Numbered from the stretch's first letter, positions 3,479-4,164 are shown. The stretch is DNA of 8,473 nt from a virus (IMGVR_UViG_2663762857_000030:1-8473), one strand, 5' to 3'. Notes: generated from the sequence alone by a model not told the origin. A program made the numbers and translations.

Positions 3479-3757
3479 ATGCACACTTCAGGGAAATTTA
3501 ATAAATCACTCAAAAAACGCAGAGACAGAACAGAACCGAAATATCGCGCGTTAGACATGACAGAGCACGCTTTAAAGGTGGCAATCAGAACGATAGACCG
3601 ACACGTAGGGGAAGGATACGCGAAGGAACATCCCGACCTGATAAGCGCATTCATGACCACGGCGGCGGCAAACTTTGCCACGCTGACAGAACGGGAGATT
3701 GCCGAAGCGGAACAGGTAACAACCATCAACGTTAAAACCGGAGAGGTGGAATCATGA
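3479..3757 (+). CDS. Hypothetical protein (92 aa; alternative start at 3557 would give 66 aa)
   Basis: ATG 3479 after GAGGGGGT; stop overlaps the SSB start (ATGA at 3754-3757). The overlapping minus-strand ORF 3445..3729 looks like an antisense artefact. No family recognised. Confidence 0.5.
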   Translation: MHTSGKFNKSLKKRRDRTEPKYRALDMTEHALKVAIRTIDRHVGEGYAKEHPDLISAFMTTAAANFATLTEREIAEAEQVTTINVKTGEVES

Positions 3758-4164
3758 CAGCACAGATAGCGGCTTACGGGCGGCTGGTGGACGACCCGCA
3801 GGTAAAACAGACCAGCAAGGGCACACCAATGACGCTGGCACGTATGGCGGTATCGTTGCCATGTAGTCAGGCGCAGGATGGGCAGGCTACGTTATGGCTA
3901 TCGGTGATGGCATTTGGTAAGCAGGCCGACTTCCTGGCTAAACATCAAAAAGGCGACGTTGCCAGCGTATCCGGCACGATGCAGGTCAGCCAGTGGACCG
4001 GACAGAACGGGGAAACGCGGCAGGGTTATCAGGTTATTGCAGACAGCGTAATCAGTGCCCGTGCGGCACGTCCTGGCGGGAACAGACGCAAAACCACAGG
4101 CACACAGGGTAATCAGCCACCAGCGGGAGGCGATGACCCTTACGGTGATGATATTCCGTTCTGA
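3754..4164 (+). CDS. ssb: Single-stranded DNA-binding protein, short form (136 aa)
   Basis: OB-fold core alignable by eye to E. coli SSB (for example WLSVMAFGK versus WHRVVLFGK), a Gly/Pro-rich linker and the C-terminal acidic tip DDIPF, which is the hallmark SSB tail. Confidence 0.85.
   Translation: MTAQIAAYGRLVDDPQVKQTSKGTPMTLARMAVSLPCSQAQDGQATLWLSVMAFGKQADFLAKHQKGDVASVSGTMQVSQWTGQNGETRQGYQVIADSVISARAARPGGNRRKTTGTQGNQPPAGGDDPYGDDIPF

Follow-up and report, generated by a model that had tools for sequence, protein, structure and literature searches.

The window, by which we mean the whole 8,473-nucleotide stretch of viral DNA analysed here, contains an ORF on the plus strand (ssb, 3754..4164, ATG start, TGA stop codon at 4162-4164) for a 136-residue single-stranded DNA-binding protein (SSB). 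The gene lies ~320 bp downstream of an iteron origin, within a tight and co-oriented pri–ori–orf92–ssb–perC block. Pfam and PHROG scans place a DUF4222 protein at 1140-1439, followed by pri (plus strand, 1436..3190), which encodes a 584-residue P4-alpha-like primase/helicase with D5_N, DUF5906 and Pox_D5 C-terminal domains. The pri product matches phrog_864 at 8e-174 as well as TIGR01613, the P4-alpha C-terminal family, and is 95% identical to the EcCICFT073-type primase of a related E. coli island (L001). Between the pri stop codon and the ORF starting at 3479 lies a putative PICI replication origin (3198..3435, without strand) with 11 TCTACC iteron cores. All 11 copies in the window fall at 3207-3428, starting 17 nt past the pri stop, and they occur in both orientations as two sets flanking an AT-rich stretch. 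This count compares with 1.9 expected and was reached in none of 200 shuffles, and the layout agrees with the origin organisation described for Gram-negative PICIs (GN-PICIs), 3' of the replication gene (PMC6092414).

The origin is followed by orf92 (plus strand, 3479..3757), a 92-residue ORF that belongs to PHROG 1231 (3.4e-52) and found no match in Pfam or NCBIfam. Its TGA and the ssb ATG share the tetranucleotide ATGA at 3754-3757, an overlap that suggests possible translational coupling of the two genes, and a Shine-Dalgarno-like GGAGAGGTGG can be read on the plus strand at 3740..3749, 4-13 nt 5' of the ssb ATG. The final gene of the block, perC, encodes a PerC-family regulator (plus strand, 4175..4423, PF06069, 7e-35) and starts 10 nt past the ssb stop codon. 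A terminator-like GC-rich hairpin with a T run (plus strand, 4446..4463), picked up by a consensus scan in which the count of such elements was not above that in shuffles, is the probable, weakly marked end of an early/replication transcription unit. Promoter and terminator scans of the window performed no better than on shuffles, and a search of the whole window with Rfam at gathering thresholds found nothing.

Beyond perC, a small ORF precedes the capsid gene. Two further elements lie in the AT-rich sequence that separates perC from the capsid operon, namely a site resembling a promoter (4565-4594) and, ahead of a T run, a 15-bp palindrome whose arms (4619-4633 / 4636-4650) match perfectly and are 2 nt apart; they may act as an operator or terminator dividing the early from the late module. 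The late genes encode a lambda-E-like major capsid protein (4884-5939), a lambda-D-like decoration protein (5951-6286), a scaffold-like protein (6299-6712) and an HTH/TerS-like (Rpp-like) protein (6875-7309), the last of which is flanked by a 78-nt inverted repeat of 81% complementarity (6743-6820 / 7478-7555). Two cos sites, cos1 and cos2, have been reported for EcCICFT073 (PMC6739421). The right end of the window is the 5' part of the AI-2 transporter gene tqsA (minus strand, 8327-8473).

The order of these genes, from DUF4222 through the 584-residue primase, small ORF, ssb, perC and a further small ORF to the E-like capsid, D-like decoration, scaffold-like and Rpp-like genes, is that of EcCICFT073 from E. 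coli CFT073, whose SSB (WP_000126698.1, NC_004431 1384538-1384948) is identical to the window SSB at 136/136 positions. The two islands differ in insertion site, which is tqsA for the window island and the interval between roxA and phoQ for EcCICFT073. In a related genome with a near-identical island (L001), the element measures ~11 kb and splits tqsA, the halves of which are annotated as pseudogenes on both sides; its first genes encode a tyrosine integrase and an alpA-like HTH protein, and pri and then the late genes follow. Megablast against complete E. coli genomes found 51 that contain 80% or more of the window, with ~95-96% identity. We conclude that the window covers the right-hand portion of an ~11-kb EcCICFT073-type Gram-negative PICI in tqsA. 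The proposal of an earlier note on this DNA, that ssb is satellite-encoded, is thereby upheld by the EcCICFT073 gene order, the identical SSB, the iteron origin and the integrase and att context. Helper-phage-dependent induction, packaging and transfer are known from experiments on EcCICFT073 itself (PMC6092414, PMC6739421).

Family, fold and tail of the island SSB

Profile searches support the assignment of the ORF at 3754-4164 to the SSBs, as the earlier note had claimed. The protein matches Pfam PF00436 over residues 5-99 (E 4.8e-17, 62.4 bits, cutoff 26) and PHROG 44, 'single strand DNA binding protein' (1.8e-40), and it passes TIGR00621 narrowly (58.5 bits, threshold 53.95). Sequence comparison with the PDB returned 25 solved SSB chains at E<1e-3 and SSBs only; the best were Thermus and Deinococcus SSBs (2e-12), while E. 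coli SSB reached merely 3.6e-6. The N-terminus MTAQIAAYGRL is conserved across the family, with M1, A3, Y8, G9 and R10 invariant in an alignment of its members (A2), and the start is therefore correct. Homologues share the pattern MTAQ..YGRL...DP; LW..V.AFG; KGD..SV.GR and, in the C-terminal part, SAR(T/S)VRPGGxRRK right after the OB domain, a variable linker and (F/Y)DD.(I/L)PF. Judged by its sequence, the ORF encodes a genuine, divergent SSB of the bacterial type, with family membership far beyond chance.

Three parts can be delimited in the protein. An OB domain (residues 1-103, nt 3754-4062) is followed by a disordered linker (residues 104-127, nt 4063-4134) that holds the basic motif RPGGNRRK and by an acidic tip (residues 128-136, nt 4135-4161); the C-terminal end of the translation reads ...GGDDPYGDDIPF, that is, ...DPYGDDIPF. 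An AlphaFold2 model built from a 45-sequence family alignment has a mean pLDDT of 87 and was used instead of the poor single-sequence model (pLDDT 57.6). Residues 1-100 are modelled at pLDDT 94-98 in the OB topology b1-b2-b3-helix-b4-b5, with strands at 3-11, 16-19, 25-36 and 44-54, a helix at 55-62 and strands at 69-82 and 88-101; residues 104-136 have a pLDDT of ~60 and lack secondary structure. The top 50 Foldseek matches to this model in the PDB are all bacterial SSBs (best E ~2e-9), with S. aureus SsbA/SsbB, B. subtilis SsbA and the Coxiella and Klebsiella proteins among the leading ones. The claim that the OB fold is kept is thus sustained by the PF00436 match, the model and the Foldseek matches, and the island SSB is predicted to be a single N-terminal OB fold with a disordered tail ending in an acidic C-terminal tip.

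The island protein differs from chromosomal E. coli SSB in the OB core and resembles it at the very C-terminus. In BLASTP with the 178-residue E. coli SSB, the two are 26% identical over the OB domain. Three of the four aromatic positions are kept, since the ssDNA-stacking residues W54, F60 and W88 of E. coli SSB correspond to W48, F54 and W81 of the island SSB; W48 is at least 90% conserved and F54 invariant among 45 family members. By contrast, W40 and H55 are replaced by C37 and L49 in the same alignment, and because of these two replacements the ssDNA-binding mode and the tetramer interface may differ from those of E. coli SSB. Both proteins have a disordered tail and the last five residues DDIPF, so that the tip is retained exactly as the earlier note had described it. 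That note was also correct that E. coli SSB has 178 residues, against 136 in the island protein. The 42-residue shortfall comes mostly from the linker, which spans ~24 residues in the island SSB and ~56 residues between OB domain and tip in E. coli SSB, with a smaller share from shorter N-terminal and loop regions. The basic RPGGNRRK that follows the OB domain is absent from E. coli SSB.

Scores against subfamily models bear on where the gene came from. The protein scores 27.1 bits against the enterobacterial chromosomal model NF006533 (PRK09010 type, cutoff 260) and 24.4 bits against the plasmid SSB model NF010292 (F-type, PRK13732, cutoff 265). These values lie so far below the cutoffs that the gene is neither a recent copy of a host ssb nor an F-type plasmid ssb, and both origins were ruled out. 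SSBs of conjugative plasmids are likewise borne by mobile elements and have an acidic C-terminal tip. They are host-like proteins of ~175-180 residues encoded in the leading region for ssDNA entry, whereas the island ssb neighbours a primase-helicase and an iteron origin, and its element enters cells as dsDNA. The best structural matches, at TM 0.7-0.8 on the target, are SsbA/SsbB and SSBs of Firmicutes temperate phages such as 80alpha. The genes of these phage proteins adjoin annealing-protein genes and not, as in the island, a replicase, and the host phyla differ. SsbB is not known to have an acidic tip.

Conservation along the protein sets the tip apart from the linker. In 107 full-length close homologues, alignment columns are conserved at a mean of 0.93 in the OB domain and 0.94 in the last nine residues, against 0.76 in the linker, and the three linker alleles (136, 140/141 and 149 residues) share the end DDP(Y/F)(G/S)D(D/N)IPF. 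All 45 sequences of the family alignment have D132 and F136. In many family members from outside Escherichia, DDIPF gives way to DDEAPF, DDETPF or YDDDF, and on account of these differing ends the tip may not be tuned purely to host partners; the SSBs of the non-Escherichia hosts presumably also end in DDDIPF.

Distribution of the ssb lineage and its replicases

A word-indexed protein search found 535 close relatives, and the 120 listed are almost all from Escherichia and Shigella; among the matches listed, relatives are named SSB by their sources and measure 136, 140/141 or 149 residues. By blastn, 1783 of 5426 complete E. coli genomes carry at least one ssb homologue and none more than six, and 2323 of the 2325 places are chromosomal. 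An exhaustive HMMER search of 1.84 billion cluster representatives returned 320 representatives at E<1e-10. Deposited phage genomes contained no protein with more than 35% identity to the island SSB, and the top-scoring proteins of the phage collection come from Staphylococcus phages, whose SSBs reach ~30%. Close matches in PLSDB comprise a few E. coli records and small non-mobilizable replicons of Klebsiella, Enterobacter, Serratia and Sodalis. One of these, a 10,592-bp circular, non-mobilizable Enterobacter cloacae record (L186, OW969629.1), encodes a 951-residue hypothetical protein, a truncated SSB of the island lineage and a PinR recombinase, and similar records of 15-23 kb occur in Enterobacter and Klebsiella. 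Such circular records may be plasmids that share the replicon module of the islands, or islands that had excised and were assembled in circular form.

To place the gene across species, we scanned one genome per GTDB species with a 9-sequence SSB alignment as query and obtained 37 loci, nearly all from Enterobacterales. By tblastn with the window proteins, an integrase lies upstream in many of these loci and perC directly downstream of ssb in 13. In almost every locus, a primase-helicase is encoded by the large ORF whose end lies 170-760 bp ahead of the SSB homologue; the 33 such ORFs contain Toprim_3 (26), a primase Zn-ribbon (25), DUF927 (21) or D5_N/DUF5906 (7-8). In IMG/VR, the replicase that precedes orf92–ssb–perC in many E. 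coli elements is of yet another, unrelated type, an AAA_25 protein of 465 residues (for example, L135 4033-5430). The same orf–ssb–perC block thus stands behind replicases with D5_N/DUF5906 (in the window), with Zn-ribbon/Toprim/DUF927 (in most other species) and with AAA_25, which shows modular replicase swapping in the islands. We considered whether the type of tip co-varies with the type of replicase and rejected this, as FDDEAPF occurs behind both D5-type and DUF927-type replicases. This independence argues against a replicase-specific contact of the tail and leaves host or helper partners as its likely targets.

The ssb gene is frequent in these islands and dispensable. Of 75 IMG/VR sister loci whose primase is more than 91% identical to that of the window and whose sequence extends far enough past it, 63 carry ssb no more than 1.5 kb downstream of the primase. 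The other 12 (~16%) are without an intact ssb: either the gene is missing and the late module is of another kind, or the copy has been hit by a deletion or an insertion. An internal deletion in one locus (L110 7113-7434) leaves a fragment of the 92-residue ORF and the 3' part of ssb, while in another (L118 5067-8243) pieces of an ssb that also bears an internal deletion lie ~2.7 kb downstream of a truncated 92-residue ORF. The ssb-less islands with the same primase carry a 626-residue ClpP-protease/capsid fusion (L047 6290-8170) or a Terminase_2 small subunit with an HK97-type capsid (L055 6793-8484). The 92-residue ORF stays by the primase and origin in nine of the 12 ssb-defective elements, and two others have a truncated copy, so this ORF is tied to the replicon and not to ssb. 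In NZ_AP042583.1, the first 74 nt of ssb (1356935-1357008, 94.6% identity) lie under an annotated PerC-family gene, which suggests that a deletion joined the ssb 5' end to perC. Since ssb accompanies most but not all sister primases and stands behind several replicases, we conclude that it is a cassette often present in the replication region, dispensable there and able to pass from one replicase type to another.

Possible functions of the SSB in the satellite

The island SSB is already annotated as an SSB in RefSeq, and 'Primase, SSB and DUF5906' form a GN-PICI replication category in Mageeney et al., 2023 (PMC10111431), so the gene is not a new find as an object. That paper holds the only explicit mention of a GN-PICI SSB that our literature search found. 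The search on PICI and satellite SSBs returned passing mentions and found no experiment on the island SSB; SSB is not mentioned in the two main EcCICFT073 papers or in a large satellite survey (PMC10085698).

We consider it probable that ssb encodes an accessory, non-essential replication factor of EcCICFT073-type PICIs whose host-identical tip would recruit host proteins. Upon induction by a helper phage the island would excise, and its primase-helicase would open the iteron origin, as in the published EcCICFT073 replicon. The ssb gene would be transcribed, and its expression timed, together with pri, the 92-residue ORF and perC, given their co-orientation, the overlapping or 10-nt junctions and the terminator-like hairpin after perC. 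From its fold and the conserved W48, F54 and W81, the OB domain, in whatever oligomeric state it may adopt, would coat ssDNA at the origin and at the forks, while the flexible tail would offer the DDIPF tip to the host partners of SSB, such as the chi subunit of Pol III, the primosome and repair factors. Such docking would follow from what the C-terminal tip of SSB is established to do, and it would matter to an island that encodes no polymerase. In sum, the cell would have additional SSB capacity, produced locally, while satellite and helper amplify together; lambda, to our knowledge, encodes no SSB. The window satellite resembles P4 in that its primase belongs to the P4-alpha C-terminal family and in being an origin-specific, self-primed satellite replicon. 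Satellite phage P4, as far as we know, has no ssb of its own and depends on host SSB, whereas the window satellite supplies its own.

How much the SSB contributes to replication is bounded by genetic data on EcCICFT073, in which the rep gene (pri) and ori keep a temperature-sensitive plasmid at 44 °C (Fillol-Salom et al., 2018; PMC6092414). Since pri and ori alone replicate, the island SSB is not required for basic replication. The idea put forward in the earlier note, that the SSB supports the element's own replication, is therefore favoured by the fixed position of ssb next to replicase and origin and holds for an accessory role at most, because pri and ori suffice and 12 of the 75 sisters are without an intact gene. 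Host SSB is enough for the minimal replicon, and any fitness benefit that the added SSB may bring is unproven.

A reading that goes further, and that we regard as doubtful, casts this ssb lineage, as found in satellites and small replicons of Enterobacterales, as more than spare SSB, namely as a dedicated adaptor cassette. Moving behind at least three unrelated replicases, it would capture host Pol III/chi or helper Red-beta onto satellite ssDNA, favouring it over helper or chromosomal DNA, and so give the satellite an advantage over the helper in replication or concatemerisation. The features that might point this way are the non-host-like OB core, the short basic linker with RPGGxRRK and the host-mimicking tip.

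The SSB could alternatively serve recombination rather than fork replication, its tail working with an annealing protein of the helper (lambda Red-beta or similar) to yield recombination-dependent island concatemers for packaging into phage-sized heads. The nearest phage relatives, the Staphylococcus phage SSBs at ~30% identity, are encoded by genes adjoining Erf/Sak annealing genes, and the SSB of 80alpha needs the C-terminal seven residues of its acidic tail to cooperate with Sak (PMC11846896). The strong conservation of the host-type tip would fit such a partnership, as would the reported packaging of an E. coli GN-PICI model as phage-length concatemers (summarised in PMC10111431). However, the island encodes no annealing protein, and in every locus examined ssb is tied to a replicase and origin and never to a recombinase; we therefore hold this role to be unlikely.

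We judge it quite unlikely that the SSB cuts helper replication by titrating host SSB partners, a competition that the earlier note had also suggested, or by occupying helper ssDNA. With a host-identical tip on an OB domain of 26% identity, the protein could compete for docking sites and yet act differently on DNA, and both the short linker of ~24 residues and its conserved basic RPGGxRRK, absent from E. coli SSB, could be read in the same way. The evidence on the other side is indirect. Genes located after the ori were cloned in a search for the inhibitor of lambda (Fillol-Salom et al., 2019; PMC6739421), and the clones in that screen covered c1499-c1503 only, from the capsid gene on, so that ssb lay outside the set. 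Deletion of rppA (c1503) alone brought lambda plaque formation back nearly to the island-free level (PMC6739421), which argues that the rest of the island, ssb included, adds little interference.

A part in defence appears very improbable. Here the SSB would act as a decoy, or as a shield from systems of the host or of rival elements that detect or target ssDNA–SSB complexes, or else it would sensitise cells to abortive detectors of foreign SSB. The restriction of the lineage to mobile elements, its lack of deposited phage relatives above 35% identity and its up to six copies per genome are circumstantial, whereas no defence gene adjoins ssb and its position next to replicase and origin is constant. 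As poor a case can be made for a decaying relic without function: the 12 of 75 sisters without an intact gene, with one internal deletion and one insertion-disrupted copy among them, would suit it, but the ORF is intact in one third of complete E. coli genomes, its OB core is conserved family-wide with invariant residues in a tip more conserved than the linker, and it persists behind three different replicase types.

If the preferred reading of an accessory replication factor holds, the result is an ordinary one, since many mobile elements carry their own SSB. Its interest lies in the element and the lineage. The best-studied Gram-negative PICI holds an uncharacterised, highly conserved SSB that occurs in one third of complete E. 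coli genomes, and deletion of the EcCICFT073 ssb has apparently not been reported in the literature. The lineage to which it belongs is specific to mobile elements: it is not host-like, deposited phages lack it, and as a travelling cassette it has come to stand behind three unrelated replicases. Its host-identical tip on a 26%-identical core makes the island SSB a clean natural reagent for the SSB-tail interactions that a satellite needs.
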